A DNA stretch of 63,957 nt, counting the filler, from Octopus bimaculoides (taxonomy: Eukaryota): NCBI RefSeq assembly GCF_001194135.2. It is 8 parts of 7 records of this genome, joined end to end, with 100 filler letters (N's around TTAATTAATTAA, not from the genome) between each part and the next. Parts side by side here need not be neighbours in the genome. Positions count along the whole stretch, not along the records: positions 16,615 to 30,228 come from NC_068994.1; positions 30,329 to 43,595 come from NC_068984.1; positions 43,696 to 47,518 come from NC_068989.1; 5 more parts are not named here. The stretch is one strand, 5' to 3'. The translations under genes and the position numbers were made by a program. Of the stretch, positions 16,615 to 47,512 are shown in pieces. The notes beneath the pieces are model-generated. The model ran no database searches, was not told the DNA's origin, and saw only the letters and a program-made list of their open reading frames with translations. Position 1 is the first letter of the stretch. The number at the start of each line of letters is the position of its first letter.

Positions 16615-16632
16615 TATATATAGAAAACAAAA

Positions 16633-16670
16633 CTGTCCGACGAACGGGAACGTGAAACACTGAGTAATAA
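16633..16670 (+). ncRNA. Hammerhead-like motif (type I, variant core)
   Basis: ctgt-CCGACGA-ACG-GGAA-CGT-GAAA-CACTGAGT-A-ataa: core with U4C, 3-bp stem II with GNRA loop, imperfect stems III and I. Confidence 0.35.
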
Positions 16671-16819
16671 ATCGAAAGGTAATCTACTATAAATCGGCAC
16701 GAACTTTCCGTACAACCCAATAGATTAAAAAAGGTTGTTGTATAAGGCCGGAACAATGCGAAAAAGTACAAAGTAAACTACAAAAGGAAAAGAAGACAGA
16801 ACAAAGTTGCAGTTTTACC

Positions 16820-16867
16820 TTTTATTTCTATATTTCGGGCTGAAGACCCTTTCTTCAGGTAAAAAAA
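16820..16867 (-). ncRNA. Hammerhead-like motif (type I, minimal)
   Basis: Minus strand tttttttac-CTGAAGA-AA-GGGT-CTTCA-GCCC-GAAA-TA-T-A-gaaataaaa: canonical core, stem II, palindromic ATAT stem III, weak stem I. Confidence 0.45.
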
Positions 16868-16891
16868 TAGAAAGCGGCAGTTGGCAAAGGT

Positions 16892-16928
<37 letters not shown>

Positions 16929-16939
16929 TTGTGCTTGTG

Positions 16940-17256
16940 TTTGTCTTTCAACACCGTTTGGCAACCGGTGTTGGTGTGTTTTCGTTCCCGTCACTTATTG
17001 GTTCAGGTAAAAGAAAGTTGGCAAAAATCGCGCTCGCGCCTGCGTCGTTGTGTCTGTGTTTGTCCCCCCACCACCGTTTGATAACCCGTGTTGGTGTGTT
17101 TACATCCTCGTAACTTAGTGGTTCGGTGAAAGAGACCGATAGAATATGTACCAGCCTTGAAAAAAAAGATAACAACAATAACAAAAAAAAACAAGTCCTT
17201 CGAAACGGTACCCCAACATGGCCGCAGTCAAATGACTGAAGCAAGTAAAATTAAAA
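16940..17256 (+). mobile_element. SINE family B 3' part with partial internal duplication
   Basis: ccgtttg.caacc.gtgttggtgtgttt occurs twice; ends catggccgcagtcaaatgactgaagcaagtaaaa like 40832-41250. Confidence 0.8.
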
Positions 17257-17952
17257 GGAATCTCCACTCCAACCCAGACACAAATGTGAAGGGACTCGAA
17301 AAATTCCTCGTCTACCTTTGTGTTTCCTGTTAATCAAAGTAGAGGGCGTTGTAAGTATTTTCTGCCTCTGGGTGTATTACATGAATCCTTGCAAAGACAC
17401 TGAATTTCTATGTTCTCCAGACATTGTCTAATCTAAAACCAACGCTCTCCAAAATGTCCGCGTCTTCGTCGTTGTCGCTATTGGTGATGGTGGCGGAGGT
17501 GGTGGTNNNNNNNNNNATAATGGTGGTGGCGATGGTGTTTTTATTGTTATTGATGGTGGAGGTCGTAGTTGGTGGTAGTGGTGGTTATTATTTAGGCGGT
17601 GGTGGCAGTGGTGGCTGTAGTGGTGACACGGGGGCTGGTTTTAGTGGTGGTTGTAGTGGTGTTGGTGGCAATGGTAGCCATGGTGATGATGATGATGATG
17701 ATGATGATGGTGGTAGCAGTGGTGAAGGTGATAATAATGATGCTGGAGTAGTAATGGTGACGGTAGAGGTGGTGGTGTTGGTAGTGGTGATGGTGGCGGT
17801 GGTTGTGGTGGTAGTGGTCAAAAAGCATTTCTGTCATAAGGATTTCATTCTTATTTGGAATCGTAACGGAAGGAGACTCCCACCCCGGGTGCATCTCATT
17901 TAATTTTCATTAATTAAGATCATCAGGCGACGAATTGTTAGAATCCTTAGTG

Positions 17953-18060
17953 CAGTGGTTCTCAACCAGGGTACATATGACCCCCACCCCGGGTGGGGGT
18001 GTTCATATAAGATTATGTTGCTAAAGTTTATGTGCAATAACATGTTTATACTGCTACATT
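17953..18060 (+). mobile_element. hAT (Charlie-like) MITE end fragment
   Basis: Begins cagtggttctcaacc, a hAT-type TIR; interrupted by the SINE at 18067; second TIR not found. Confidence 0.45.
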
Positions 18061-18066
18061 AGCGAA

Positions 18067-18380
18067 GGCGCATAGCTCAGAGTTTAGAGCGTCGGGTTTA
18101 CAAACACGAGGGAGTGAGTTCGATTCCCGGCCCGGGCTGTGCGTTGTGTTCTTGAGCAAGACACTTTATTTCACGTTGCTCCAGTTCACTCAGCTGTAAA
18201 AATGAGTTGCGACATCACTGGTGCCAAGGTGTATCTGTTGTATGGAGAGGTGAGACTAATATGCATGGGAGATTGCTGGTCTTCGATAAACAACCTTTCC
18301 ATGACTTGTGCCTCGGAGGGGTACTTACTAGGTGCAATCCCATGGTCCTTCATGACCGAAGGGGGTCTTTACCCTTTTAC
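18067..18380 (+). mobile_element. tRNA-derived SINE family C
   Basis: Head ggcgcatagctcagagtttagagcg...gagttcgattcccgg with Pol III A and B boxes, then the central block cttgagcaagacactttatttcacgttgctccagt shared with 18622-18754 and 60759-60990. Confidence 0.88.
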
Positions 18381-18394
18381 TTCTACATTCCTGA

Positions 18395-18497
18395 AGATAT
18401 TTTAGCAATTACGTTTCGGTTGATATACCATCCAGCTTTTATCAGATATCTTGGGGAAATTTCGAACCTGGGTTCTCATTCCTAAGGAATTTTTCGA

Positions 18498-18563
<66 letters not shown>

Positions 18564-18622
18564 TCAGGTCACTGCTTGGAATCGAACTCGGAATCTTGGG
18601 GTTAGTATCCCGCGCTCTTGAC
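18395..18622 (-). mobile_element. SINE-like element: tRNA-like head + (AAT)n + hammerhead-like tail
   Basis: Minus strand ggtcaagagcgcgggatactaaccccaagattccgagttcgattcc (B box), (aat)n, then gatat-CTGATAA-A-AGCTG-N10-CAACC-GAAA-CG-T-A. Confidence 0.6.
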
Positions 18623-18754
18623 CAGCTGAGTGGACTGGAGCAACGTGAAATGAAGTTTTGCTCAAGAAAACAACGCGTCGCCCGGTCAAGGAATCGAAAC
18701 CACAGTCTTACGATCATGATGTTGACAACCTAACTAGTAAGCCACGCACCTCCA
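18622..18754 (-). mobile_element. tRNA-derived SINE head (family C/D-related)
   Basis: Reverse complement ggaggtgcgtggcttactagttagg...gtttcgattccttgaccgggcgacgcgttgttttcttgagcaaaacttcatttcacgttgctccag; same head as 60759. Confidence 0.8.
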
Positions 18755-19237
18755 CAGACTTGACGAAAATATTGTGATATTGTGAGTTATTTAGACGCAT
18801 TAATATCAAAGTGTAGGCATGGTGGAAAATGGTGCCATGACAAGTAATTAGACACTACATACACACAATGCAATTTCTAACGCTGCAGTTTGCATAATAC
18901 TATATTTAGTTAATATATGAATGTTAGTGACACAATTGAATCGCTATAATGAGACAGACGTAACTAATTAAATACGTGTGTGGTTAAACATATGAATATG
19001 CCAGAAACAATGTAAATTATAAACTCTAAACTTCGAGACCTCGGAGTTTCGTATGCTACTTACACAATCGTCAGTGGAGGAAGAAATTATTCTTTTTTGT
19101 AAACACACACACACACGCACACACACGAGCACGCATACATGCGCACGCATATATTATGGTAGTACAGTGTTACGTGATATTCTACACAAACACACGCACG
19201 TACATATATGCAAACAGAATAAATGAATATATGTACA

Positions 19238-19275
<38 letters not shown>

Positions 19276-19479
19276 TAACGTTGTGTCTGCCACTTGCTAA
19301 AATTACGTGATAAGTGACATGTACAAACATCAACTCACTTAAGTTACTTATGTAACTATATTTAACGAATATTTTTAAACGCTTCATTTTCTCTATGAGT
19401 TTTATATCTTCTTCTTGGTACCAGCATGTACTTATGTATTGCGTTAAGTCAAATGTTTTGCAATATTTTGCTTAATTAA

Positions 19480-19907
19480 GGCGGCGAACTGGCATGAAAA
19501 GTTAGTACGCCGGGCGAAATGCTTAATGGTATTTCGTCTGTTTACGTTCTGAGTTCAAATTCCGCCGAGGTCGTCTTTGCCTTTCATCCTTTCGGGGTCG
19601 ATTAAATAAGTACCAGTTACGCACTGGGGTCGATATAATCGACTTAATCCCTTTGTCTGTCCTTATTTGTCCCCTTTATGTTTAACCCCTTGTGGGCAAT
19701 AAAGAAATAAGAAACGTTAGTACGCCAGGCGAAATGCTTAGCGGTATCTCGTCTGTCTTTACGTTCTGAGTTCAAATTCCGCTGAGGTCGTCTTTGCCTT
19801 TCATCTTTTCGGGATCGATAAATTAAGTACCAGTTGCATACTGGGGTCCATCTAATCGACTGGCTCCCTCTCCCAAAATTTCGGGCTTTGTGCTTAGCGT
19901 AGAAAAG
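19480..19907 (+). mobile_element. SINE family A dimer (tail type A1 followed by 5'-clipped tail type A2)
   Basis: Two bodies in tandem, 19480-19713 ending aataaagaaataagaa and 19711-19907 ending gctttgtgcttagcgtagaaaag. Confidence 0.92.
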
Positions 19908-20881
19908 AAGAGAATAAAATGTTTTCGGTTGCTCCCACGTCATTCAGCCCAGTTCAAACTCGTAAAGCATCTGTGCAGTTTTCAAGTCACCCACGGAATC
20001 AAATAATGCACAACGTATCAGCGAACCAACTGCCACGGTACAACCAGCCTCAGCGACTACCTTCCACAGCTTAAACGCTTCGGTCACGTGATCTACTCGC
20101 AGCAGTCGTCTCAAGATATTTACATATATTTCGTGTTACGCTAAGAAGTGGTATACGGCACCACAATTTTCGACTCGAGTCAAATATAACATGCTACTCG
20201 AAGTCGTTGTAAGAGAATCCGCGTAAGTGGAGTCAAGACGGGCTAGTCTGTACAAGCACCAAGTCGTATTACTTGTAATCATGAAGCCAAACAAAATAAT
20301 GATAATTTGAAATAATTTAAGACGTACATTTCTGGTCTGCGTAATATACAATAGGAAATGAAAGCCTGAAATTAGTCCGTTACAAAATCTCAATTCGAGA
20401 TAGAAGCAATATACAAACCAAAATGTATTGCTTATGGCCACTTTAATGTGGATGCTTTCTTAAAGACGACGATACTGCCATTTAACCCTAGGACGACATC
20501 TCCTCCAGCTGGTTCCTTCAGTGCGCTTCTCGCACCCGATATTTATTGTAAGCGGGAGATAACTCCTGCCACCCTAGCTTCCAGACCACCAGACCAGGTG
20601 GTTTCAATCTGTATTGGATCTCCTCAGTGATGGGTACTTGTTGCCAGTAATACTTTTTTGGTTCATATGCTGCTTCTCTCTCGAGCAGAGATTTTCTAAC
20701 GGTCTAGTTTGCTTGTTACAAAATCAAAGATTCTATGACACTGTGTTTTCTATATATTGCGAGCGACGTAAACTGACAAACGAGTATTCAAGATTTCTTA
20801 CCAATAGAAAAAGAGTTGGTTTCTAGCCCTGATGCAAGTCTTCTTCCTTGGAATTTCAACAACATCAACAGGATAGTTTTG

Positions 20882-20916
<35 letters not shown>

Positions 20917-21401
20917 NNNNNNNNNNNNNNNNNNNNNNNNNNNNNNNNNNNNNNNNNNNNNNNNNNNNNNNNNNNNNNNNNNNNNNNNNNNNNNNNNNNN
21001 NNNNNNNNNNNNNNNNNNNNNNNNNNNNNNNNNNNNNNNNNNNNNNNNNNNNNNNNNNNNNNNNNNNNNNNNNNNNNNNNNNNNNNNNNNNNNNNNNNNN
21101 NNNNNNNNNNNNNNNNNNNNNNNNNNNNNNNNNNNNNNNNNNNNNNNNNNNNNNNNNNNNNNNNNNNNNNNNNNNNNNNNNNNNNNNNNNNNNNNNNNNN
21201 NNNNNNNNNNNNNNNNNNNNNNNNNNNNNNNNNNNNNNNNNNNNNNNNNNNNNNNNNNNNNNNNNNNNNNNNNNNNNNNNNNNNNNNNNNNNNNNNNNNN
21301 NNNNNNNNNNNNNNNNNNNNNNNNNNNNNNNNNNNNNNNNNNNNNNNNNNNNNNNNNNNNNNNNNNNNNNNNNNNNNNNNNNNNNNTTTATAAACAAACA
21401 C

Positions 21402-21415
21402 TGCTGCTGCTGCCG

Positions 21416-21447
<32 letters not shown>

Positions 21448-21476
21448 GAAACTACTGCTGCTGCTGCTACTACTAT

Positions 21477-21525
<49 letters not shown>

Positions 21526-21529
21526 GCTG

Positions 21530-21566
<37 letters not shown>

Positions 21567-21675
21567 TACTACTACTACTACTACTTTCATCACTACCATC
21601 GCTACCACCATCCTATTCCGCTCCTCCTCCTCCTCCTCCTACTACTACTACTACTACTGCTACTACTACTACTTA
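21402..21675. repeat. (CTA/CTG/CCT)n trinucleotide tract
   Basis: Direct inspection. Confidence 0.9.
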
Positions 21676-22115
21676 CAAATCCCGAGTATGGTGTCTCAAG
21701 GAAGTACGGCTGCACCTAGATATGCATGTTTTTTATTGATGTCATTGCTGCTGCTAACGATGCTGGTGGTGGCGGCGGCGATAATGGTGGTAGTGCTATT
21801 TTCCGAATGTAGGACAAAGTGCGAACGTGACTGATGCCCGTTTCCAGAAGAGGACAGAAATAACCGAAGCACAAACAAACAAACACAAATATACAAGTAA
21901 GCGCTCATACATAGAAAGAGAGAGAAAAAAACAAATCCGATACCAAGACATACATAAATCCATGAATACATATTTTATTAATGCCGTTACCCCAACCGCC
22001 ACTGCGAAGTTCCTGCAATAAATCTACGGATAACAACAGGTAATCGATACTGTGCCGGTGCTTTACTCATCATCTACTTGTACATTTTGTACAATTTCTC
22101 CACTATATATATATA

Positions 22116-22316
22116 TATGATTGACCGTTGACTGAACACTATTCAATTTTTTTTCTCCGTGTTTTTCTCCTTGTCTCCGTATTCTTTCTGTTGAAGAGCG
22201 TAGCTCGAAACGTCAAAGACTTTCCGTATTCCCGAGCGTCATACTAATATATACTTTTGTTATTTACACCACCTGTCCTCGTCTGTTGTTATTATTTGTA
22301 TATTCTCCCATATATA
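22116..22316 (+). mobile_element. Short (TA)n-flanked repeat family P2 with hammerhead-like motif (near-identical to 43397-43595)
   Basis: About 200 bp, near-identical to 43397-43595 (one substitution seen); diverged copy at 33504-33700. Confidence 0.85.
22183..22219 (+). ncRNA. Minimal type I hammerhead-like motif (A6U core, extra A after A9)
   Basis: tcttt-CTGTTGA-A-GAGC-GTA-GCTC-GAAA-CG-T-C-aaaga: 5-bp stem I, 4-bp stem II, palindromic ACGT stem III, GUC site. Confidence 0.55.
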
Positions 22317-23377
22317 TATNNNNNNNNNNNNNNNNNNNNNNNNNNNNNNNNNNNNNNNNNNNNNNNNNNNNNNNNNNNNNNNNNNNNNNNNNNNNNNNNN
22401 NNNNNNNNNNNNNNNNNNNNNNNNNNNNNNNNNNNNNNNNNNNNNNNNNNNNNNNNNNNNNNNNNNNNNNNNNNNNNNNNNNNNNNNNNNNNNNNNNNNN
22501 NNNNNNNNNNNNNNNNNNNNNNNNNNNNNNNNNNNNNNNNNNNNNNNNNNNNNNNNNNNNNNNNNNNNNNNNNNNNNNNNNNNNNNNNNNNNNNNNNNNN
22601 NNNNNNNNNNNNNNNNNNNNNNNNNNNNNNNNNNNNNNNNNNNNNNNNNNNNNNNNNNNNNNNNNNNNNNNNNNNNNNNNNNNNNNNNNNNNNNNNNNNN
22701 NNNNNNNNNNNNNNNNNNNNNNNNNNNNNNNNNNNNNNNNNNNNNNNNNNNNNNNNNNNNNNNNNNNNNNNNNNNNNNNNNNNNNNNNNNNNNNNNNNNN
22801 NNNNNNNNNNNNNNNNNNNNNNNNNNNNNNNNNNNNNNNNNNNNNNNNNNNNNNNNNNNNNNNNNNNNNNNNNNNNNNNNNNNNNNNNNNNNNNNNNNNN
22901 NNNNNNNNNNNNNNNNNNNNNNNNNNNNNNNNNNNNNNNNNNNNNNNNNNNNNNNNNNNNNNNNNNNNNNNNNNNNNNNNNNNNNNNNNNNNNNNNNNNN
23001 NNNNNNNNNNNNNNNNNNNNNNNNNNNNNNNNNNNNNNNNNNNNNNNNNNNNNNNNNNNNNNNNNNNNNNNNNNNNNNNNNNNNNNNNNNNNNNNNNNNN
23101 NNNNNNNNNNNNNNNNNNNNNNNNNNNNNNNNNNNNNNNNNNNNNNNNNNNNNNNNNNNNNNNNNNNNNNNNNNNNNNNNNNNNNNNNNNNNNNNNNNNN
23201 NNNNNNNNNNNNNNNNNNNNNNNNNNNNNNNNNNNNNNNNNNNNNNNNNNNNNNNNNNNNNNNNNNNNNNNNNNNNNNNNNNNNNNNNNNNNNNNNNNNN
23301 NNNNNNAGCTTCGTCACTATTATAGGTATCAAAATGCACAAGAAATACTCATAGATTACGGAGAGAACGATGTATAC

Positions 23378-23435
<58 letters not shown>

Positions 23436-23532
23436 TTAACTATATATCTGTCTGTCTGTGTGTCTATCTATCTATCTATACACGCACACACGCACACACG
23501 CACACACACACACACACACCTACATAGTTGCA

Positions 23533-24345
23533 TACGTATATGGGATACCCAAAAGAAACTGGAATTTTGCATTATTATTTTATTCACTTACTTTTCCATG
23601 TTTACACGTTTATCACCTTCAATGTATCGGTCCAGACGCGTTTCCCATTGTTCAAAGCAGTCCTGGAACTCTTGCAAAGTGATGCCTTGTAACGTCTCCG
23701 TCGTTTTTTGTTTTCTTATCTTCACCTCTTCCACATCTGCCAAACGTTTTCCTTTAAGGACTTTTTCATTCAGGGGAACAAAAAAAAAAAAAGTCACAAG
23801 GAGCAAGAGCGGGTGAATAGGGAGGGTGTGTAAGCGGGGTCATGTCATTTTAAGCCAAAAAGTGTCTCACACTGAAGGAGGTCTGTGTAGGTGCATTATC
23901 GTGATGCAACCACCATCCTCCATTTTGTCACAGGTCCGGGCGATTTCGTCTCACCACTCGCAAACGCTTCTGAACTTCCAAGTAAAAAGGCTGGTGAACA
24001 GTTTGACCAATAGGAAGAAATTCTGTGTAGACAATTCCTTTCACATCTATGAAACAAATCAGCATCGTTTTGACACTGGACTTCACTTGACCCACTTATT
24101 GTGGGGCGTGGTGACATTAAATGCTTTCATTGTTGTTTCATTTCCGGTTTGTAACTGTAGTAACAGCTTTCATCACCAATGATGACCTTCGAAAAAAATG
24201 TCCGGGTCAACTTCCAACCGTTCTTTCAGTTCCCGACACACATTCGGTTGTCACTGCTTTTGATCTTCCGTGAGTAAACGAAGCACGAATTTTGCTGCAA
24301 CTCTTTTCATTCGCAATTCCTCGTTCAAAATTCGCTCCAGGAATT
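23533..24345 (-). mobile_element. Decayed mariner transposase C-terminal half plus terminal repeat
   Basis: Minus-strand fragments SKVIIGDES, WLHHDNAP, HPPYSPALAPCDFFF, LKGKRLADVEEVK, FQDCFEQWETRLDRYIEGD match the mariner DD34D catalytic domain, with frameshifts and stops; probable TIR near 23533-23570. Confidence 0.92.
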
Positions 24346-24352
24346 ATTCTTT

Positions 24353-24480
24353 GTAAGCCTAGTACTTAGTCTATCGGTCTCTTTTTGCCGAACCGCTAAG
24401 TTACGGAGATGTAAACACACCAAGATCGGTTGTCAAGCGATGATGGGGGGGGGGGACAAACACAGACACACAAGCACATA
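24353..24480 (-). mobile_element. SINE family B fragment abutting the mariner remnant
   Basis: gtaagcctagtacttagtctatcggtctctttttgccgaaccgctaagttacgg... is the reverse complement of 41050-41150. Confidence 0.85.
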
Positions 24481-25842
24481 CACACCTATATATATAAACT
24501 TAGATAAACTTAGATATGTTTCGACCAAAGATTGGTCCATGTCTAACTTAATAGNNNNNNNNNNNNNNNNNNNNNNNNNNNNNNNNNNNNNNNNNNNNNN
24601 NNNNNNNNNNNNNNNNNNNNNNNNNNNNNNNNNNNNNNNNNNNNNNNNNNNNNNNNNNNNNNNNNNNNNNNNNNNNNNNNNNNNNNNNNNNNNNNNNNNN
24701 NNNNNNNNNNNNNNNNNNNNNNNNNNNNNNNNNNNNNNNNNNNNNNNNNNNNNNNNNNNNNNNNNNNNNNNNNNNNNNNNNNNNNNNNNNNNNNNNNNNN
24801 NNNNNNNNNNNNNNNNNNNNNNNNNNNNNNNNNNNNNNNNNNNNNNNNNNNNNNNNNNNNNNNNNNNNNNNNNNNNNNNNNNNNNNNNNNNNNNNNNNNN
24901 NNNNNNNNNNNNNNNNNNNNNNNNNNNNNNNNNNNNNNNNNNNNNNNNNNNNNNNNNNNNNNNNNNNNNNNNNNNNNNNNNNNNNNNNNNNNNNNNNNNN
25001 NNNNNNNNNNNNNNNNNNNNNNNNNNNNNNNNNNNNNNNNNNATGTATATATATACATATATATATACATATATATATACGTATGTATGTATTTATGTAT
25101 CTATATGTAATACATACATACATACGTACATACATATATATATATATATATACAACCAATTACATCATATACATTTGCCTAAATGCAGAACAAACACATT
25201 TAAACGAGATCACACACACAGAGGCACACACACAAACACACACACATAGATACATACACACATACATACATACATACATGCATACATGCACACATACATA
25301 CACGCCAGTGTTATTCTGTTTCAGCTACTTCACGCTGTTTACAATTATTTGAGCAGATTATGTTTCTAATTAGCTGTTATTGTTGTTACTAACGGTGGTG
25401 GTAGTGTCGGTGGTGTTGGTAGTGGTGGTGACAGCAGCGGTAGTGGTAATGGTGGTGGTGCTGGTGTTGATAGTGGTAATGGTGGTATTAGTGGTGGTGG
25501 TGGCGAGTGTGTAGTTGCTTTTCTGCAACACTTTAGCTCTGGTCGTTCCAGACATGACCATCGCGTATTATTATGTATGTCACGAAAAATTGTGGTGGTA
25601 GTTGCAGTGGTTGTGGTGATAGTTGCGGTGGTTGTAGTAGTGGTGAAGGCTGATGAAGGTGGTGGTTGCGGGGCAAAATTTGCTTTGTTTTATTTGTTTA
25701 ACTCTAGGATTACCATGATCGAAATGACTTATGATGAAAGACCTTCCAACTATCATGACCACCACTACCACCACCACCACCAACACTAGTACTTGTTCCA
25801 TCACAACCGCTATTATTTTATTATCATTTTTTCCTGACATGC

Positions 25843-26650
25843 GTGGTCTGATTAATATGTAACCGAACTTTGGCCATAGTAACCAAACTAAACCACGCAG
25901 AGTGAAGCCGCTTGGTACAGATTGACCTTGAACTCTGCTGTGCATGCGCACTAAGATTTAATGTTCTAGCTCACTTCTGCTGTTTACAGCAGTGCTTGGA
26001 AGGAATATGTGTAGCGTGTGATCGTCGCATTGACCATGACAGAGAAAGTTGAGCAGTGAATCTGCATCAAATTTTGCCAAAAGCATGGCTATCCCTGCTC
26101 AGTTCCCATCGTTCTCGACACAATCAAGGAGATATTGTGCAACTGAAACCCGAGTGTTTTTTTGGTCAGCTGAAAGCAGTTTTGGCACAAACTTGGCAGA
26201 CACGTGTCTCATACCCAATTGTTTTCAGTGAGAATGGACTGAGGTAAACCGTAACTAATCTGCACATCCTCTGGTAATTCACGGATGGCGATTCAACGAT
26301 TTGTCCTCACAGCTGCATGCACATCTGCGATGCTTTTCACAGTTCTGCTGGTTGCGGGTCTCTCACAACGTTCTCCATTATCAACATTTCTTCGGCCATC
26401 TTGGAAATATCTGAAACACTCGTACATTTGTGTGCAACTCATACACTCCTCACCATACACTTTCTGCAACTTTGCGTTGGCCTCTGAGCAGGTAATCGCC
26501 ATGACAACTTTCTCTGTTACGGTCAATGCGTCGATCACACGCTACACATGTTCCTTCCAACCACTGCTGTAAGCACCACAAGTGAGCTCGAATGATAAAC
26601 TTAGTGCGCGTGCTCAGCAGAGGTCAAGGTCAACCTATATCAAGTGGCTT
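25843..26650 (-). mobile_element. Second copy of the 12778-13654 mariner MITE, opposite orientation
   Basis: Same arms (gtggtctgat..., ctctgctgtgcatgcgcactaag, tagcgtgtgatcgtcg) and the same HTH remnant CSEANAKLQKVYGEECMSCTQMYECFRYFQDGRRNVDNGERCERPATS; distal right TIR missing. Confidence 0.88.
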
Positions 26651-26939
26651 CAGAATGTGATGATTGTTGTTGAACCCCAGGTCAACCACGACCCAGTAGA
26701 CGTATGATCAAAAGCGTTCCAACCGCGACTGTTCACTATTATTCCTTCCTATATGCATGGAAACTAGAGCCGCATTATCCCCCGTATACTTTTCTGAGAC
26801 GGTTATACGAGATTTGAGTTATATTTGACTGTTGTTTTTAGCTGGCTGAATAAGTAGGTAGTCTTCCGAATGTATCGAGTTTGTGATATTAGAATAGCTG
26901 TTATGGTTGGTAGTTGTGTTGGGGCTGTTGTTGTTGGTG

Positions 26940-26945
26940 TCTGTG

Positions 26946-26981
<36 letters not shown>

Positions 26982-28649: not shown

Positions 28650-29014
28650 GTATTTCGTCCTTCGTCCAGCGAACTAACGATTCTGCCAGCTCGCCATCTT
28701 GCTTAATAATGGTTTCAAATTTTGCCACAAGGGCAGCTTGCTGGAGGTGGGGATGAGTCGATTACAAATTCAACTGGTACTTCTTTTATCAATCCCAAAA
28801 GGATGAAAGCAAAGTCGACCTCGACGGAATTTGAACTCAGGACGTAGCAACGGACGAAATACCACTAAGCATTTCGTCCGGCGTGCTAACGACTCTGACA
28901 GACAGTTCGCTGCCTTGCATAATAATAAAAATAATTTCTACTAAAGGCACAAGGCCTGAAATTTGAGGGGAGGAGACTAGTCGATTACATCGATGGCAGT
29001 GTTTCACGGGTACC
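28650..29014 (-). mobile_element. Cluster of SINE family A pieces (head 28650-28697, full copy 28718-28914, tail 28935-29014)
   Basis: Reverse-complement matches to the family A head ggcagcgaactg..cgttagcacgccggacgaaatgcttag and to its tail. Confidence 0.8.
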
Positions 29015-29477
29015 NNNNNNNNNNNNNNNNNNNNNNNNNNNNNNNNNNNNNNNNNNNNNNNNNNNNNNNNNNNNNNNNNNNNNNNNNNNNNNNNNNNNNN
29101 NNNNNNNNNNNNNNNNNNNNNNNNNNNNNNNNNNNNNNNNNNNNNNNNNNNNNNNNNNNNNNNNNNNNNNNNNNNNNNNNNNNNNNNNNNNNNNNNNNNN
29201 NNNNNNNNNNNNNNNNNNNNNNNNNNNNNNNNNNNNNNNNNNNNNNNNNNNNNNNNNNNNNNNNNNNNNNNNNNNNNNNNNNNNNNNNNNNNNNNNNNNN
29301 NNNNNNNNNNNNNNNNNNNNNNNNNNNNNNNNNNNNNNNNNNNNNNNNNNNNNNNNNNNNNNNNNNNNNNNNNNNNNNNNNNNNNNNNNNNNNNNNNNNN
29401 NNNNNNNNNNNNNNNNNNNNNNNNNNNNNNNNNNNNNNNNNNNNNNNNNNNNNNNNNNNNNNNNNNNNNNNNNNNNT

Positions 29478-29784
29478 TTCGGGGTCGATAAATTTAGTAC
29501 CAGCGAAACGCTCGGGTCGATGTAGTCGACTAGTCCCCACCCTACAAATTTGAAGCCTTGTGCCACCAGTAGAAAAGATTGTTGTTATCATCAAAGCGGT
29601 GAGCTAGCAGGGTCGTTAGAGCGCCGAGCAAAATATTTGGCGGTATTTCGTCCGCCCTTACGCTCTAAGTTCAAATTCCACCGAGGTCGACTTTGCCTTT
29701 CATCCTCTCGGGGTCGATAAAATAACTACCAGCTGATCACTGGGGTCGACGTAATCGACTAACGATTCCGCCAGCTCACCGCCT
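29478..29784 (+). mobile_element. SINE family A tail (29478-29577) and a copy (29594-29760) capped by an inverted head (29759-29784)
   Basis: Direct alignment to 36789-37022; the terminal 26-nt arms match 21/26 in inverted orientation. Confidence 0.8.
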
Positions 29785-32639: not shown

Positions 32640-32940
32640 AAGATAAACAAGAGTGAAAAAACTACAGAAGGCTTGTGTTACATGGTTGAAGTATATATTT
32701 AAATTATGTCAGAAAAATGTTATAAAATTTTTTTGGTATATAAACATTGTATTTGGAGAAATAACCGGTTTCGTGTTGTCTTTTCAAATTTCTCTACTTC
32801 ATGGTAACATGTCCTCGCTCCCGTGTATAAAAAATAGAGTTCTAGATAGGGGGAGGTAATTAGGGATTTCTTCCGGTATAAGGGAGATAATTGAAATGTA
32901 GAAGGTGGTAGATTTTGATTAATTTGTCATGGTTTGGTTT
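32640..32940 (-). mobile_element. Short (TA)n-flanked repeat family P1 with hammerhead (second copy 47205-47512)
   Basis: About 300 bp shared with 47205-47512, with substitutions and indels outside the ribozyme; (TA)n on both sides. Confidence 0.85.
32756..32794 (-). ncRNA. Minimal type I hammerhead ribozyme, U3-A8 core variant
   Basis: Minus strand GAGAAAT-TTGAAAA-G(ACAACA)C-GAAA-CCGG-T-T-ATTTCTC: perfect 7-bp stem I, palindromic ACCGGT stem III, 1-bp stem II, GUU site. Confidence 0.7.
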
Positions 32941-33503: not shown

Positions 33504-33700
33504 ATGATAGATCGCTGACCACTACATTTATATTTTTTTCTCCTTGTTTTTCTCCTTATTTCTTTGTGTTCCTTTCAGTTAAAGAGTGTAGCTCGAAACG
33601 TTAAAGACTTTCTCTATTCCCGAGCGTTAAACTAATACATCCATTTGTTGTTTATACCACCTGTCCTCGTCTGTTGTTGTTTTTTTCGCAAGTTCTCCTA
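33504..33700 (+). mobile_element. Diverged copy of repeat family P2
   Basis: Aligns to 22116-22316; hammerhead core decayed to CAGTTAA (33572-33607) while GAG.GTA-GCTC-GAAACGT is kept. Confidence 0.8.
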
Positions 33701-34112: not shown

Positions 34113-34122
34113 ATGGAATATT

Positions 34123-34535
34123 CTTTTCTACTTTAGCACAAGTCCCGAAATTTTGGGGGAAGTGGCCAGTCGATTATATCGACCCCAGTACGCAACTAAT
34201 ACTTAATTTATCGACCCCGAAATGATAAAAGGCAAAGTCGAGTTCGGCGGAATTTGAACTCAGAACGTAAAGACAGATGAAATACTGCTTAGCATTTCGC
34301 TCGGCGTGCTAATGTTTCTTATTTCTTTATTGCTCACAAGGGGCTAAACATAGAGGGGACAAACAAGGACAGACAAAGGGATTAAGTCGATTACATCGAC
34401 CCCAATACGTAACTGGTACTTAATTTATCGACCTCGAAAGGATGAAAAGCAAAGACGACCTCTTCAGAATTTGAACTCAGAATGTAAAGACAGACGAAAT
34501 GCCGCTAAACATTTCGGCGTATTAACGTTTCTGCA
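34123..34535 (-). mobile_element. SINE family A dimer (A1 then clipped A2), same architecture as 19480-19907
   Basis: Reverse complement ...gcaataaagaaataagaaac|attagcacgccgagcgaaatgc... Confidence 0.9.
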
Positions 34536-36788: not shown

Positions 36789-37022
36789 AGCGGCGAGCTG
36801 GCAGAATCGTTAGCACGCCGGACGAAATGCTTAGCGTTATTTCATCTGCCGTTACGTTCTGAGTTCAAATTCCGCCGAGGTTGACTTTGCCTTTCATCCT
36901 TTCGGGGTCGATAAATTAAGTACCAATTAGGCACTGGGGTCGATGTAATCGACTTACTCCCTTTGTTTGTCCTTGTTTGTCTCCTCTATGTTTAGCCCCT
37001 TGTGGGCAATAAAGAAATAAGA
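36789..37022 (+). mobile_element. Full-length SINE family A (tail A1) with 16-bp target site duplication
   Basis: agaaacatgtatttcc at 36773-36788 and at 37020-37035. Confidence 0.93.
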
Positions 37023-37373
37023 AACATGTATTTCCTTTTACTTCCACATTGCATTTGGCTACCGAAGCTTAGGAAGAAATGGAGTGTGGTATCATATACT
37101 TAGTCTCAGAGAGAAGGTTCGATTCGGTAAATGGTTCATATGGCCATATTAAACCGAAGGATAGATTCAATTAACAACCTAAGAACAAATGCAGCCCATT
37201 TAGCGAACCTACACACGCAAATTTCTTTCTGCGTAATTTATTTCCCAAGATCTGGATTGGTTTGCGGCTCTGACAGAATTTATTTACCAAAGTGCTGTAC
37301 CGAACGATCGAAACTGGTACGACACTATAACATACTGACTGTTGTAACGACATACCTACCAGAACTTCTCTTA

Positions 37374-37434
<61 letters not shown>

Positions 37435-38014: not shown

Positions 38015-38066
<52 letters not shown>

Positions 38067-39573: not shown

Positions 39574-39604
<31 letters not shown>

Positions 39605-40704
39605 ACATATATACATATACCATCATCCACACACCCGCACATTATAGACTCACACACTTACACTTGCATACCTCCACACACGTCAAAGACACTAGCCCCT
39701 ATCCACACACACGTTCTTACATACACACACACGCATGCGTATCTTCGCTTTGGGATCACCAATGATTTATTATCTCCCCTTCTTTCTACCTCTACTGTCA
39801 CACCTTTTTTCCTCATCCAGTCGCTAAATCCACACATTTAGTACGGTATTATCCATACAATTTCAAAATAAGGTGATTAAAATCAAAATACGCAACAAGG
39901 ATATCCAGATGTAATACAGTACGATCGTTTCATGCAACTCCATTTAATTGAACAATGTAATCATTACATCAATTTAAAATGCAGAGCAATCCTCAGCTGC
40001 ACAAATGCATAGAATTGAATTAAATTAGAACAGATGGATACGTTAGTATAATTATACCTAAAATCTACAAGAATTTAAGGAGATAGACAAAAAACACGTT
40101 GATTCTACTACAACATAGAAGTTAATAAATAAAATGTCCAGAAGACTCTGCCTGTCACTAATTTTATTTGTTTTTTTAAATTTTAATTTATAGACTAGTT
40201 TACCAAATCTTGTATATCTAAGGTTTGAGAGAATAAAGGGCATTCTCTGTTAGGGGTAGGGGTGAGAGAGCAGACAGAAATCATAGTTGGTATAGTCATA
40301 AAATCATGAGGTTTGGTAAAGGAAAACTTAAAACAAGATGTTGGCTGACAACTAAGCGGGATCGCCCTCTAGCAGACCATTGATAATGACACAGGGGAAG
40401 TCTTATCATGTAGTACTATAGTTAAATGATTCAAAACAATGTAGCTATATTGTATACAGATAATGTTTATGGCTATTCAGAGGATTATTAAGAAGAATAT
40501 ATTAAGAAAAGGAAAGAAATTTTTGGCTACTTTTGAGTATATACCAAACTTTTACTACAATAGAGGGACGAAAAGAAATTATTCAGAAATCGTTTAATAT
40601 TTGTACATATTGTACACTTAAATACTAACTCATCATATGGTATCTATGAATATTGACTAATATGTATATACTGGTATTAATAAAGGAGTATTGAGGTAAT
40701 AGAA

Positions 40705-40831
40705 CATTCTAATTATATATTAATAAAATTATATTCTAATTATATTCTAATTATATATTAATTATATTCTAATTATATTCTAATGATATATTAATTATAT
40801 TCTAATTATATATTAATAAAATTATATTCTA
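40705..40831. repeat. AT-rich minisatellite (attatattcta / attatatattaataaa units)
   Basis: Direct inspection. Confidence 0.8.
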
Positions 40832-41250
40832 GGCGCGGGAGTGCCTGTGTGGTAAGTAGCTTGCTTACCAACCACATGGTTCTGGGTTCAGTCCCACTGC
40901 GTGGCACCTTGGGCAAGTGTCTTCAACTATAGCCTCGGGCCGACCAAAGCCTTGTGAGTGGATTTGGTAGACGGAAAATGAAAGAAGCCCGTCGTATATA
41001 TGTATATGTATATATATATGTATGTGTGTGTATATGTTTGTGTGTCTGTGTTTGTCCCCCCGACATCGCTTGACAACCGATGCTGGTGTGTTTACGTCCC
41101 CGTAACCTAGCGGTTCGGCAAAAGAGACCGATAGAATAAGTACTAGGCTTCCAAAGAAAAAGTCCCGCGGTCGATTTGCTCGACTAAAGGCGGTGCTCCA
41201 GCATGGCCGCAGTCAAATGACTGAAACAAGTAAAAGAATAAAAGAAAAAG
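40832..41250 (+). mobile_element. Full-length SINE family B
   Basis: tRNA-like head (tgtggtaag...gggttcagtccc), central ccttgggcaagtgtcttc block, internal (TA)/(TG) repeat, tail gcatggccgcagtcaaatgactgaaacaagtaaaagaataaaag; highly similar to 62730-63141. Confidence 0.92.
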
Positions 41251-42126
41251 AGCAGTGTTTTTTATATGTAGCGAATATACCAGTATAGTTTTATATAAGC
41301 TAAATATGAATTTATAGAGATACAATGATTAGCTTAATTTATTTATGAATAAATAAAGGCTAATTATAAATTAATAAAGAAATGAAATAAAATACTCAAT
41401 TAAGGCAGAATACCATAGAAATAAAATAGCTTCATTACTAATGCTATGGTAAAAAGTATACTTTTTCTATAAATCTTCTCTATTGGTGTTAATAAGTTAA
41501 ATATACTTTACCAAGGACCATACATACTGAGGTAATACACCAGGAGTGCCTACATATACATCTATCCCTTAGATGGTTGCATAACCTCTAACTTATATCA
41601 ATATATGTATATGTATAATTTGTTGGATGCCGGTGACTTCTGCTTCAAATATGATTACTTCAATGTCGCTGGACTGATGTAGAAACATGCGTTTGTATTG
41701 CTGCATATACTGTTTCATCAGTCAATTTAGTTCGTTGAAATATTACATCATTTTCATATTGGAAGAGATTTTTCATGAACTTAGTGTTATTGAAGAAAAG
41801 CTAACGCGAACGAATTTAACTATATCGTCTGGCTTCTCTGGTAGCTTTTTTCATACAGCAAATAGAGTAAATTGTACGGATCTGCAATTGACGAAGAAGT
41901 TACTGGTCCTAAAAAGCGATCTACTATAAGATATATAAGAAATCTTACTATGTACTTTAATATACAACCATGTAACACTTCTTTACAGGTGATTAGTTTA
42001 ATATATGTATTTATAATCCATCATTACACGAATAAATTAAAACTAATGAATTTTCTTAGAGTCCACTAAGATAAAACCTAACGAAATTAATGAACACATA
42101 CATACATACATACATACATACATACA

Positions 42127-42158
<32 letters not shown>

Positions 42159-43396
42159 CACGTATATACATACATACATACATGCATACTTAGCTATATT
42201 TATGCATACAAAAAAATATATTATATCCACTTACATTGTCTACATATCAACGTCTATATTGTATGCATATATATATATATATATANNNNNNNNNNNNNNN
42301 NNNNNNNNNNNNNNNNNNNNNNNNNNNNNNNNNNNNNNNNNNNNNNNNNNNNNNNNNNNNNNNNNNNNNNNNNNNNNNNNNNNNNNNNNNNNNNNNNNNN
42401 NNNNNNNNNNNNNNNNNNNNNNNNNNNNNNNNNNNNNNNNNNNNNNNNNNNNNNNNNNNNNNNNNNNNNNNNNNNNNNNNNNNNNNNNNNNNNNNNNNNN
42501 NNNNNNNNNNNNNNNNNNNNNNNNNNNNNNNNNNNNNNNNNNNNNNNNNNNNNNNNNNNNNNNNNNNNNNNNNNNNNNNNNNNNNNNNNNNNNNNNNNNN
42601 NNNNNNNNNNNNNNNNNNNNNNNNNNNNNNNNNNNNNNNNNNNNNNNNNNNNNNNNNNNNNNNNNNNNNNNNNNNNNNNNNNNNNNNNNNNNNNNNNNNN
42701 NNNNNNNNNNNNNNNNNNNNNNNNNNNNNNNNNNNNNNNNNNNNNNNNNNNNNNNNNNNNNNNNNNNNNNNNNNNNNNNNNNNNNNNNNNNNNNNNNNNN
42801 NNNNNNNNNNNNNNNNNNNNNNNNNNNNNNNNNNNNNNNNNNNNNNNNNNNNNNNNNNNNNNNNNNNNNNNNNNNNNNNNNNNNNNNNNNNNNNNNNNNN
42901 NNNNNNNNNTATATAAGCAAAATGTACATATATAAACATAATAACATATGTAGTTATAGATAAACGTATGTATGTTTGTATGTCCATATGTATGTATGCA
43001 TGCATGCATGCATGCAATGTAGACATTGCAACTCATCTGTGAGGATTCAGTTTTAAGTTCAAATTTTACTAGCGTTAATTTTGTTTATTTTCTATAAAAT
43101 CATACTCGGTGACTTTAGTGTAGTAATATAATGCATCAATAGGCTTACACATAGTGTTCGATCGAAATATGAATTGTAATAATTTGAATGCCTTCAGCTC
43201 CTTAAGATTATACAAACAATTAACAGGCCAAATGTGATAACTTATAAAAAAAAAAAGATTAGTTGATCGTAATTCTTTGACAATACAGACAGTGTAGATT
43301 CTAGAATTTCTGGTATTGAAGAGTAACTGGTAAGAGTAGTGAATATGTTTCGTTCTTATTACAAGCATTCAGCAAGGCTGCAAGCAACCTCATTAT

Positions 43397-43595
43397 TATG
43401 ATTGACCGTTGACTGAATACTATTCAATTTTTTTTTCTCCGTGTTTTTCTCCTTGTCTCCGTATTCTTTCTGTTGAAGAGCGTAGCTCGAAACGTCAAAG
43501 ACTTTCCGTATTCCCGAGCGTCATACTAATATATACTTTTGTTATTTACACCACCTGTCCTCGTCTGTTGTTATTATTTGTATATTCTCCCATAT
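43397..43595 (+). mobile_element. Repeat family P2 copy; hammerhead-like motif at 43465-43501
   Basis: Near-identical to 22116-22316; different left flank. Confidence 0.85.
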
Positions 43596-43695
43596 NNNNN
43601 NNNNNNNNNNNNNNNNNNNNNNNNNNNNNNNNNNNNNNNTTAATTAATTAANNNNNNNNNNNNNNNNNNNNNNNNNNNNNNNNNNNNNNNNNNNN

Positions 43696-43720
43696 CGTCG
43701 TCGTCATCATCATCATCATC

Positions 43721-43752
<32 letters not shown>

Positions 43753-43915
43753 CATAATCATCATCATCGTCGTCGTCGTCGTCGTCGTCATCGTCATCGT
43801 AATCGTCATCGTCATCGTCGTCGTCGTCGTCATCATCATCATCATCATCATCATCACCACCATCATCACCAACATTATCAGCATCGCTGTCGTCGTCGTC
43901 ATCATCATCATCATC

Positions 43916-43947
<32 letters not shown>

Positions 43948-44885
43948 CATCATCATCGTCGTCGTCGTCGTCGTCGTCATCGTAATCGTCATCGTCATCG
44001 TCGTCGTCGTCGTTATCATCATCATCATCANNNNNNNNNNNNNNNNNNNNNNNNNNNNNNNNNNNNNNNNNNNNNNNNNNNNNNNNNNNNNNNNNNNNNN
44101 NNNNNNNNNNNNNNNNNNNNNNNNNNNNNNNNNNNNNNNNNNNNNNNNNNNNNNNNNNNNNNNNNNNNNNNNNNNNNNNNNNNNNNNNNNNNNNNNNNNN
44201 NNNNNNNNNNNNNNNNNNNNNNNNNNNNNNNNNNNNNNNNNNNNNNNNNNNNNNNNNNNNNNNNNNNNNNNNNNNNNNNNNNNNNNNNNNNNNNNNNNNN
44301 NNNNNNNNNNNNNNNNNNNNNNNNNNNNNNNNNNNNNNNNNNNNNNNNNNNNNNNNNNNNNNNNNNNNNNNNNNNNNNNNNNNNNNNNNNNNNNNNNNNN
44401 NNNNNNNNNNNNNNNNNNNNNNNNNNNNNNNNNNNNNNNNNNNNNNNNNNNNNNNNNNNNNNNNNNNNNNNNNNNNNNNNNNNNNNNNNNNNNNNNNNNN
44501 NNNNNNNNNNNNACCACCACCACCACCACCACCATCACCACTATCGCGACAATCACCATCAACAGCAGCACTAGTGTCACCACCACTACTACTATTACTA
44601 CCATCACCACCACCACCACCAACAAAAACAACCTCAACAACATCCCATCATTATCATAATCATGATCATCAACATCGTCATCACCACTGTAACTGCCATC
44701 ACCACCACCACAATCACCACGACGACGAAGTGAAGATGACCGCCACCACTTCCACTACTACCACCACCACGCTGTCATCGTCATCATCAGCACCATTAAC
44801 AATGTCATCACCATCATCATCATTTACTGCTTCCCGCAGCAGCAGCGGAAGTAGCAGCAGCAGTAGTAGTAGCAGCAGCAGCAGC
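43696..44885. repeat. (CAT/CGT/CAC/CAG)n trinucleotide region with a roughly 190-bp higher-order duplication, split by an N gap
   Basis: Direct inspection. Confidence 0.85.
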
Positions 44886-46301
44886 GTTAGATAGAATGGA
44901 ATAACGGGATTATGCCTTGTCGTATTCGATTACGCCCCTTCAGATTCTATAGGGATCATTCTTTATCTACCAATCAGTATTATATGATTTATTATTTTAT
45001 TACCCCAAATTTTATTGCCTTGTGCCGCTTATAGAAATTAACACGTGTGTGTGTAGGGGGGTGCCGGTGTGTAAATGTGTGCACGTGTGTGCAGGCCCCC
45101 TCAAAAAATGTTACAGGGTCTCCTCCCGGACAAAGCAATGCCTCAGTGCCTATAGTATTTATTTATTTATTGACAGCAAGCCACAACATAGGTAGATTAG
45201 CATTGAGCTCCTAAACTCATCCCCATCGCCTGGATAAACTATCATGTGTGCCTATGCATTAAGACGGGACCCAGTGTGTGCGGCGTCGAGTGAAGCTAAA
45301 AACAGAAGCAGTGACATCCTAAAACCTCACAGCCTTCAATGTTTTAGCTTTTTTTTATATCAGTTTGTTATTTGCTTTTGTAATTATTAACTATATTAAT
45401 CGTTTGTTTCGACTTAGCTTTCAAGAAATTATATGCTGGTCGGGTGTTTCTCAAAATGGACAGTACTACCCGCTAGGGAGTGGTGGAAAAATTCGTATGA
45501 GTATTAGGAACAAATGAGGCGGTAGAGAGGTGATACGTGCATCTGTACATATTTTTTAGTCTTAGGCTCCTACTAATTTAAATATTTTTAATGTAATATT
45601 TCCATAAACATGTTGTTAGTTACAATAACAGCAATACGGATAAAAGCAATAGCAACGACAAAATGAACAGTAATAATGTACTTCGAAATATGAATACCTA
45701 TACCAATAAAACCGAATATAAACCCACCTATGTTGCTAGTATTCATTTATAGAAGGGTGATACTGGAGTAAGTAGACACGCGCCTCAAACTAGTACCCGG
45801 AACTAAATTTGTCTGGCCTGATTATACAAAAAAGTACATGAAAAATAGTGAGATGGATCACATTGAACCTTTGCAAGGGAGCGTTGAAAACATGTTATTG
45901 AAAGAAATCTTTGAGATGCACGGTGCTAATAGAACAGAAAAGAAAAACACTACTAAAATGATAGCAAATGCCAGATTAACCTATACTCTGTTTAGATTTG
46001 TTGTGGGATGCAACACTTCAATAGGAATATACGTATTATTGCTTTTATGTTGTGGCCATAACGCTATAATGCGGACATACGGACATACAACAATTTATTT
46101 TTCTTAACATTACTCGTCTTTCGTTCTTTTTCTTCCGTGTTTTTTTCCTTTTGCTTTGTCTTGCTTTTCTTTCCTTTTCTGAAACACGATTCCATCTGTC
46201 TCATTTTATGTATTTCCCACAAATTAACTATTACATACATACATACATACAGACATACATACAGACATACATACACACACACACACATACATACATACAT
46301 A

Positions 46302-46337
<36 letters not shown>

Positions 46338-46637
46338 CATATATATGTGTGTATGTATGTATGTGTGGTTCGTTGGTTCGTGTATATATATNNNNNNNNN
46401 NNNNNNNNNNNNNNNNNNNNNNNNNNNNNNNNNNNNNNNNNNNNNNNNNNNNNNNNNNNNNNNNNNNNNNNNNNNNNNNNNNNNNNNNNNNNNNNNNNNN
46501 NNNNNNNNNNNNNNNNNNNNNNNNNNNNNNNNNNNNNNNNNNNNNNNNNNNNNNNNNNNNNNNNNATGGAGAACACGTTAACTATTCAAAAATACACACA
46601 AAAACCCGTTAACTTCACTTAATTCTTTATTATTCGG

Positions 46638-46680
46638 TCCCAAAATTTTCGTCGCACCAACGGCAACCTGATCAATGACG
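46638..46680 (-). ncRNA. Degenerate hammerhead-like motif
   Basis: Minus strand gtca-TTGATCA-G-GTTGC-N7-GCGAC-GAAA-AT-T-T-tggg: 5-bp stem II and AATT palindrome, but core position 8 broken and stem I only 3 bp. Confidence 0.25.
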
Positions 46681-46755
<75 letters not shown>

Positions 46756-47204
46756 ACACCGCCACTGCTGCTATTAATACTACTAATACTGTCAACTCTT
46801 GCTGCTGTTTCCTCTTGTCTTTGATTTTTGGAAGCTTCTGTTTAAGGTTATTGATTTTCATTGACTGACTGACTGAGTACAATGTTAAAGGAAGACAGAA
46901 GGAAAGAAAAATGACAGGGCATGTGAAATGCAACAAAATTCCAGGTTAATTGACCAATTATGAGCACCCAATTAGCATGGCTGACCTGTGTCTATAACAA
47001 GAACATATAGTATAATCTCAGAACTTATATATAGGAACCAACAAACTTCGCCACAAACCACAAACTTGATGCAGTGGAATCGTGTCAGTGACCAGGTCGC
47101 AGTGGATGCGACGGAAGTTTGAAGTTAACAGCGTTTTTCTGTTTTTTTAATGGTTCATACGTGTCTTTCAAGATGTAATTGCATATATATATATATATAT
47201 ATAT

Positions 47205-47512
47205 AAAAGATAATAAGAGTGAAAAAACTACAGAAGGCTTGTGTTACATGGTTAAAGTATATATTTAAATTATGTCAGAAAAATGTTAGAAAAATGTTAT
47301 AAAATCTTTTTGGTATATAAACATTGTATTTTGAGAAATAACCGGTTTCGTGTTGTCTTTTCAAATTTCTCTACTTCATTGTGTCGTGTTCGCTCCAGTC
47401 TGAGAAAGAAGAGTTCTAGATAGGGGGAGGTAATTAGGGATTTCTTCCGGTATAGGGGAGATAATCGAAATCTAGGAGGTGGTAGAATTTGATTAATTTA
47501 CCATGGTTTTGT
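47205..47512 (-). mobile_element. Repeat family P1 copy
   Basis: Aligns to 32640-32940; preceded by (TA)n. Confidence 0.85.
47333..47371 (-). ncRNA. Minimal type I hammerhead ribozyme, identical (39/39) to 32756-32794
   Basis: Plus-strand gagaaataaccggtttcgtgttgtcttttcaaatttctc in both copies. Confidence 0.7.

Follow-up and report, generated by a model that had tools for sequence, protein, structure and literature searches.

The stretch of Octopus bimaculoides DNA analysed here (the window: 63,957 nucleotides, eight joined parts of assembly GCF_001194135.2) carries short repeats with hammerhead ribozyme motifs that fall into five families, P1, P2, 16617, 18395 and 46638. Very probably, most of these repeats are 3' ends of coding Penelope-like elements (PLEs), one family having a tRNA-derived head that likely acts as an RNA polymerase III (Pol III) promoter. 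The original prediction had the repeats at the right positions, in several mutually unrelated families, and recognised PLE-type minimal type I hammerheads with a palindromic stem III, including the individual palindromes ACGT, ACCGGT, ATAT and AATT. Its view of a population of short non-autonomous retrozymes is not upheld: P1, P2, 16617 and 18395 are ends of coding PLEs, with no fixed unit length and no head-to-tail arrays. That none of the repeats encodes protein is correct for the fragments in the window but not for the families, four of which (of five) run on into PLE coding sequence elsewhere. Absent from that prediction is the tRNA-derived head of 18395; no other part acts as a non-autonomous unit would.

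The features of the window that belong to the five families are:

22119..22313, plus strand: young P2 copy, the 3' end of a Neptune-type PLE, flanked by (TA)n on either side; hammerhead intact, with U6 and C3 at 22188, the cut being predicted after 22214
43397..43595, plus strand: P2 copy; hammerhead intact (C3 at 43470); 5' side without (TA)n, 3' side cut off by the end of this part of the stretch
33504..33699, plus strand: copy of an older P2 subfamily; decayed core; (TA)n adjoins it downstream and lies 14 nt away upstream; similar to the 3' ends of loci L333 and L339
32641..32939, minus strand: P1 copy, the 3' end of a Neptune-type PLE, flanked by (TA)n on either side; its hammerhead has a U3-A8 pair (U3 at 32787) and a stem II of 1 bp
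47205..47513, minus strand: P1 copy; hammerhead intact, with U3-A8 (U3 at 47364); (TA)11 adjoins the 3' end
16725..16894, minus strand: 16617, end of a PLE family with C-terminal GIY-YIG, truncated 5' and 3'; decayed hammerhead at about 16863-16824, C3 at 16858, ATAT palindrome
16623..16724, minus strand: about 100 nt outside the 16617 family, missing from the 12 other family copies; then (TA)4 at the end of this part of the stretch
18563..18623, minus strand: 18395, tRNA-derived head of a Poseidon-type pseudo-long terminal repeat (pseudo-LTR), 5'-truncated; A box lost, B box at about 18589-18578
18500..18564, minus strand: (TAA)n tract inside the pseudo-LTR, separating head from tail in coding as well as short copies
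18411..18499, minus strand: tail of the pseudo-LTR; start codon 18479-18477; decayed, 3'-cut hammerhead with C3 at 18445, G8 changed and the 3' strand of stem I lost
46567..46680, minus strand: 46638, old short hammerhead repeat, decayed here; relatives have a G3-C8 pair and a 6-bp stem II

Hammerhead motifs in the window and in the genome

The genome searched comprises 2.34 Gb in 145,327 contigs, and the parts joined in the window are rich in microsatellites and gaps; these parts lie on different contigs, 16617-18622 on C14 and the 46638 repeat on C9. The descriptor used to scan for type I hammerheads was a relaxed one, drawn up post hoc with the motifs already known; it asks for a Watson-Crick pair 3-8, G10.1-C11.1, a stem III that is palindromic and no fewer than 4 of 5 pairs in stem I. 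The window has four intact hammerheads (at 22188, 43470, 32787 and 47364) and each of 100 block-wise dinucleotide shuffles has none. The window copies of 16617, 18395, 33504 and 46638 are decayed and fail the descriptor; their intact form is found only in genomic relatives. Two further candidates on the plus strand, 50788 and 36753, passed a loose scan and were rejected by the stricter descriptor. Rfam identified no hammerhead family among the best 150 of 216 matches to the window, only low-complexity microRNA and small nucleolar RNA matches.

Genome-wide, the motifs have 3,424 exact matches for P2, 669 for P1 (up to one mismatch), 5,235 for 18395 (up to two), 13 for 16617 (up to two) and 8 for 46638 (up to three); reversed-pattern controls gave 0 in every case. 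Thirty loci each were inspected for P2, P1 and 18395, together with 13 for 16617 and 8 for 46638. The hammerhead fits the descriptor at 30/30 loci of P2 and of P1 (both chosen by motif), 13/30 of 18395, 2/13 of 16617 and 2/8 of 46638.

The 3-8 pair is C-G in P2, 18395 and 16617, U-A in P1 and G-C in most relatives of 46638; across families it covaries. Copies of the 18395 family have an intact CUGAUGA core, in contrast to the window copy with its changed G8. Older subfamilies of P2 differ in loop II and at core positions 7 and 17; U6 is kept and the remaining core mostly holds. The five hammerheads include natural core variants (U6; U3-A8 with a 1-bp stem II; G3-C8), which may already be in the literature.

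P1, P2 and 16617 continue into coding sequence

The P2 copies at 22119 and 43400 are 99% alike, and the copy at 33504 is 83-85% alike to young P2. P2 has a single common 3' end, whereas the 5' ends scatter from 10 to 130 nt ahead of the motif (25 of 30 loci gap-free); matches to a 27-mer located 180 nt upstream number only 161, versus 3,424 at the hammerhead. One P2 copy is joined to a piece of a DKG-type reverse transcriptase (RT), and a search with this piece yields RT copies. At the P2-linked locus L307, the RT is continuous into a GIY-YIG domain. Among 20 longer stretches examined, L339 is gap-free from the DKG region of the RT to a P2-like end (77-79% alike), and L333 leads from the RT to a P2-like end with a gap between. 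Loci L324, L330 and L342 have 95-100% identical P2 sequence 2.8-3 kb downstream of the RT on the same strand, again with a gap between. Only one same-strand pair within 1 kb is present among the 100 P2 matches listed. P2 is, on this evidence, best described as the 5'-truncated 3' end of a coding Neptune-type PLE.

The same appears to be true for P1. The two window copies are 88% alike, and at locus L108 the P1 hammerhead is preceded by 1.1 kb of frameshifted open reading frame (ORF) pieces with a CX4CxxC linker and GIY-YIG, with an inverted copy further upstream. P1 has two 3' ends about 38 nt apart (copies end 0-2 or 35-38 nt short), frequent inverted partners and ragged 5' ends; no same-strand pair within 5 kb was found among the 100 P1 matches listed. 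The CX2-5CxxC linker is clear in P1 (L108); the P2 copy L307 has only a decayed cysteine cluster. The Neptune clade was assigned to both families by motifs and not by a tree.

For 16617, the end of a GIY-YIG-type ORF lies upstream at two of 13 loci (L093 and L098) and several copies have inverted partners, consistent with this family, too, being the 5'-truncated 3' end of a coding PLE, of which only the GIY-YIG end is linked. The end of the segment next to the window copy (16623..16724) may resemble a mariner terminal repeat.

The combination of fixed 3' ends (with an optional tail of 30-40 nt in P1 and 18395), ragged 5' ends and inverted partners (the latter in P1, 16617 and 18395) that P1, P2, 16617 and 18395 present corresponds to the insertion pattern known for PLEs (PMC8557442, PMC8969392).

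The 18395 family is a coding PLE with a tRNA-derived head in its pseudo-LTR

An RT piece beside an inverted 18395 copy has at least 150 close matches in the genome. The near full-length locus L176 consists of an inverted end, a partial pseudo-LTR (that is, a partial tandem), the ORF and a pseudo-LTR. Its product has 37% identity over 765 amino acids to an 836-amino-acid Anolis protein and lacks the CX2-5CxxC linker. Pfam matched RVT_1 (E=9e-11) only and no GIY-YIG model, so that the endonuclease was assigned from homologues and from motifs recognised by eye. By motifs and full-length similarity, not by a tree, 18395 can be classified as a coding PLE of the Penelope/Poseidon type.

The order of parts is stop codon, about 30 nt, a 73-nt head with A and B boxes, (TAA)n, and the tail with ATG, hammerhead and 3' end. 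The spacing from stop codon to A box is 32-33 nt at 12 of 20 long loci; the others are gapped, truncated or deleted there. The frame from the tail ATG stays in phase to the element end in 18 of 24 complete tails and is open into the RT, and a 55%-identical homologue starts with a matching peptide, indicating that the ribozyme lies inside the coding frame, as in the anole element. At their 3' side, copies end 0 or about 29-40 nt short. We rejected an independent short interspersed nuclear element (SINE) that has borrowed the tail of a PLE, because head and tail are both found in coding copies.

The head aligns end to end with the 72-74 nt tRNA genes of the genome (49 identities at best, with z 7.1; the sample of 17 hits held only genes for Arg, Thr, Ala and Lys) and has A and B boxes at tRNA spacing. 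With relaxed settings, ARAGORN calls a tRNA in 23 of 90 heads versus 0 of 900 shuffles; with default settings it calls none at 11 head-bearing loci.

To the 5' ends we applied a sample of 90 copies anchored in the 3' half of the head, from the first 100 listed of 3,830 matches. Tail or hammerhead are present in 80 of the 90, and 5 of the other 10 run into a gap; an upstream copy in inverted orientation accompanies 44. With one copy dropped for a gap, 42 of 89 copies end inside the head, 35 in a 10-nt interval at the head start and 12 beyond it. Thus, 35 of the 47 copies that reach the start end there, versus 6.9 expected at the in-head rate (P ~1e-19). The commonest 5' end is 3 nt upstream of the first base of the tRNA and most lie between -3 and +2. 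Just upstream of the head, a 33-mer has 968 matches genome-wide, 25% of the 3,830 of the head. Opposite-strand joints fall on the same base in three sequencing runs labelled as two other organisms. The pile-up at the head start suggests Pol III-started, SINE-like RNAs, and it is likely that the head is a Pol III promoter that gives rise to SINE-like copies.

Some neighbouring observations concern the same sequences. In L176 and related loci, the second GIY-YIG motif reads YKG in every translated copy. Seven of the 17 tRNA hits are near-identical Thr(AGT) genes, and two tRNA-Thr(AGT) genes lie 163 nt apart (L351/L355, C1:197303311-197303547). At L109:7900-9500, the decayed RT of another PLE family is found directly behind a Poseidon-type copy. 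The 18395 copy of the window stands directly behind an element at 18623-18760 that also matches 60756-60883 and which, judged by eye, is a different SINE-like element with a tRNA-type head.

Association with (TA)n microsatellites

The original prediction had the repeats target TA tracts, with P1, P2 and the 16617 element abutting (TA)n in the window. We counted (TA)3 or longer within 8 nt of the 3' end and left out copies that end in gaps; the background is 4.0% of 12,305 flank positions. P2 has (TA)n on the 3' side at 24 of 24 loci (6 dropped) and P1 at 10-11 of 21 (9 dropped; one end is mis-called, hence 10), with six other P1 copies ending in (CA)n. The figures are 3/13 for 16617 (weak), 1/29 for 18395 (1 dropped) and 0/8 for 46638. 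As the 5' side is also (TA)n at 13 of 25 loci for P2 and 10 of 25 for P1, these two families insert into TA tracts. TA targeting is thus far above background for P2 and P1 but is not general: 18395 and 46638 are unassociated and 16617 only weakly so. Within the window, adjacency holds for P1 and P2 but not for 16617, the family match of which stops at about 16725, some 100 nt before the (TA)4. A microsatellite bias is on record for Neptune/Naiad PLEs (PMC8557442).

How the copies may arise, and alternative explanations

We envisage that the PLE protein nicks AT-rich DNA and that reverse transcription would begin at a fixed site 3' of the hammerhead; an early stop would be usual and would leave stumps of 100-300 nt. 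In 18395, Pol III would in addition transcribe any copy with an intact head, starting about 3 nt before the first base of the tRNA and running through the hammerhead tail, and the protein of the parent would copy this short RNA in trans, the result being SINE-like yet still part of that parent. Cleavage by the hammerheads would need a dimer or the help of protein; most genomic hammerhead copies are single and decaying.

Several observations weigh against this account. For the head, no parent isotype could be pinned down (four isotypes sampled) and Rfam gives no tRNA call on head-bearing loci even at E 10. Internal deletions of longer copies account for several in-head ends and for one or more of the 35 pile-up calls, so that the long fraction is nearer 15/89. 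The 5' ends of P2 form local clusters as well (in a small sample), and P2 is therefore no clean control for the pile-up of 18395. One raw RNA run (unstranded, labelled as another organism) has a copy-gradient signal and no end pile-up, and is uninformative either way. For the ribozymes, no compensatory stem changes were found within families, only neutral decay without double changes (127 aligned 18395 pieces and the P2 variants), which is expected for dead copies of one source. P2 with its U6 and P1 with its 1-bp stem II may be poor ribozymes; an A6C change lowers hammerhead activity (PMC3088659). Finally, no ORF was found for 46638 at its 8 loci.

The head might instead be a passively captured SINE remnant without any Pol III role, with the pile-up reflecting a Pol II start (Pol II, RNA polymerase II), a processing site or a stop of reverse transcription. 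We regard this as possible, though rather unlikely. The pseudo-LTR houses the known PLE promoters, and introns in the cases studied point to Pol II (PMC8557442), the AUG of the ORF downstream of the head would favour a capped RNA, and the RNA run examined gives no sign of Pol III. However, the head retains both its A and its B box at the spacing of a tRNA, and the stretch from head to end has no common T4 run. Moreover, the ends lie just 5' of the whole tRNA (mostly -3 to +2), neither inside it nor exactly at +1, where processing by RNase P would put them. At the other extreme, Pol III could read the whole 2.6-kb coding unit from the head of the upstream pseudo-LTR, and the RNA be translated uncapped, which we consider improbable. 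Nowhere along the unit, for which up to 52 pieces were aligned, do more than three of them share a T4 run; L176 has one T4 run versus 4.4 expected under a third-base null (P=0.05; base shuffle P=0.04) and a TTT/TTC ratio of 4/15 for its Phe codons, and P1, for contrast, has 9 T4 runs in 1.2 kb. But a codon-shuffle null for L176 expects only 1.9 T4 runs (P=0.39), the headless ORF of P2 is poor in T4 too (P=0.03 and 0.08), just 4-12 copies cover the 5' third of the unit in the T4 count, and Pol III is described as weakly processive (PMC10886601). The bolder version, in which a captured tRNA gene has replaced the Pol II promoter and Pol III reads from the head through the hammerhead and the whole T4-free 2.6-kb frame, so as to make both the uncapped mRNA of an autonomous element and thousands of SINE-like offspring (a SINE being born within its parent), is equally doubtful.

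It is very unlikely that we are dealing with short, independent, non-autonomous retrozymes whose target is (TA)n and whose spread proceeds via circular RNA. The copies are indeed short and numerous, P1 and P2 abut (TA)n, no ORF was found for 46638, and a preprint traces animal retrozymes to PLE pseudo-LTRs (10.64898/2026.07.22.740005), but four families are continuous with coding sequence, and there is neither a unit length nor a tandem array. Chance matches in AT-rich repeats can be practically dismissed as the origin of the hammerhead motifs: although the descriptor was relaxed and fitted afterwards, and 4 of 8 window copies fail it, there were 0 matches in 100 shuffles, the motifs are positioned 3' of PLE ORFs and the 3-8 pair covaries across families. 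We therefore retain the ends of coding PLEs, with a likely Pol III promoter in 18395, as the most probable explanation.

Other repeats in the window

An 820-bp element resembling a miniature inverted-repeat transposable element is present twice (12773-13654 and 25837-26652; 81% alike, terminal inverted repeats of about 200 bp). An abundant repeat with an internal duplication about 215 nt apart occurs at 19481-19909, 34121-34534, 36790-37027, 28770-29013, 29477-29763 and 15021-15232. The segments 50962-51091 and 52720-52849 form an inverted pair of 130 bp, 98% alike and spaced 1.6 kb.

Comparison with known systems

The repeats are mostly known PLE debris, and hammerhead-bearing PLE stumps in TA tracts have already been described. 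With the minimal PLE hammerheads of Cervera and de la Pena 2014 (PMC4209133) they share the type I fold, a palindromic 15.2-16.2/loop 3, an extra base after A9, G10.1-C11.1 and the U3-A8 variant already on record there, as well as the occurrence mostly as single copies tied to truncated PLEs and as inverted pairs 100-700 bp apart. The U6 of P2, the natural G3-C8 of 46638 and the tRNA-derived head are not found described in the available part of that text. P1 and P2 resemble Neptune-clade PLEs (Craig et al. 2021, PMC8557442) in the C-terminal GIY-YIG, the microsatellite bias, the inverted partners, the optional tail of 30-40 bp and, clearly in P1 but only in decayed form in the P2 copy L307, the CX2-5CxxC linker; there is no difference in kind and, by motifs, they are probably new families of this group. 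Metazoan non-LTR retrozymes are likewise short and non-coding with a type I hammerhead, but are tandem, have canonical hammerheads and form circular RNAs (PMC7229834), whereas the repeats described here are single stumps with minimal hammerheads.

The 18395 element is similar to PAc, the Poseidon of Anolis carolinensis (Frangieh et al. 2024, PMC11167929): both have an RT with C-terminal GIY-YIG, no Zn linker, two fixed 3' ends and an ORF that starts in the pseudo-LTR and overlaps the hammerhead (the 37%-identical Anolis protein may not be PAc itself). Reverse transcription of PAc begins at two internal sites, which accounts for the tail, and the PAc ribozyme cuts only with protein present and is dispensable for in vitro insertion (PMC11167929). 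The tRNA-derived head, the (TAA)n and the 5' ends at the head are features of 18395 not found described for PAc in the accessible sections of that paper.

SINEs are by definition non-coding parasites, in which the promoter of a small RNA has been joined to a tail taken from a coding partner. Short 18395 copies are like a tRNA-derived SINE in the 5' head with A and B boxes, but they are not an independent lineage that shares only the 3' tail. If the head is a working Pol III promoter, 18395 would unite promoter, ribozyme, start codon and copying signal in one cassette within a coding element and offer a direct route to the birth of a SINE; the family also allows a simple test of Pol III as the polymerase on which a coding retroelement could depend. 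In the literature surveyed, as far as its texts were accessible (including PMC6765202, PMC10886601, PMC7229834, PMC13282606, PMC8967140, PMC6962438 and 10.64898/2026.07.22.740005), there is no PLE with a tRNA-derived pseudo-LTR, although Repbase and supplements could hold such a family. Nearest to 18395 are the Sm-alpha SINEs and the Cassandra/Helenus group. The Schistosoma Sm-alpha/Sj-alpha hammerhead SINEs also have a Pol III-type promoter followed by a hammerhead but are tandem and non-coding (PMC6765202), while the 18395 cassette is inside a coding PLE and its copies are dispersed or inverted. Cassandra, Helenus and Ajax (TRIMp3; Kojima 2024, PMC10886601) have a tRNA- or 5S-derived Pol III promoter in the terminal repeat; these are non-autonomous LTR elements, the repeat of which is argued not to be common with an autonomous partner, whereas the coding element of 18395 carries its own, and would, if the promoter works, be the PLE counterpart of Cassandra and Helenus.

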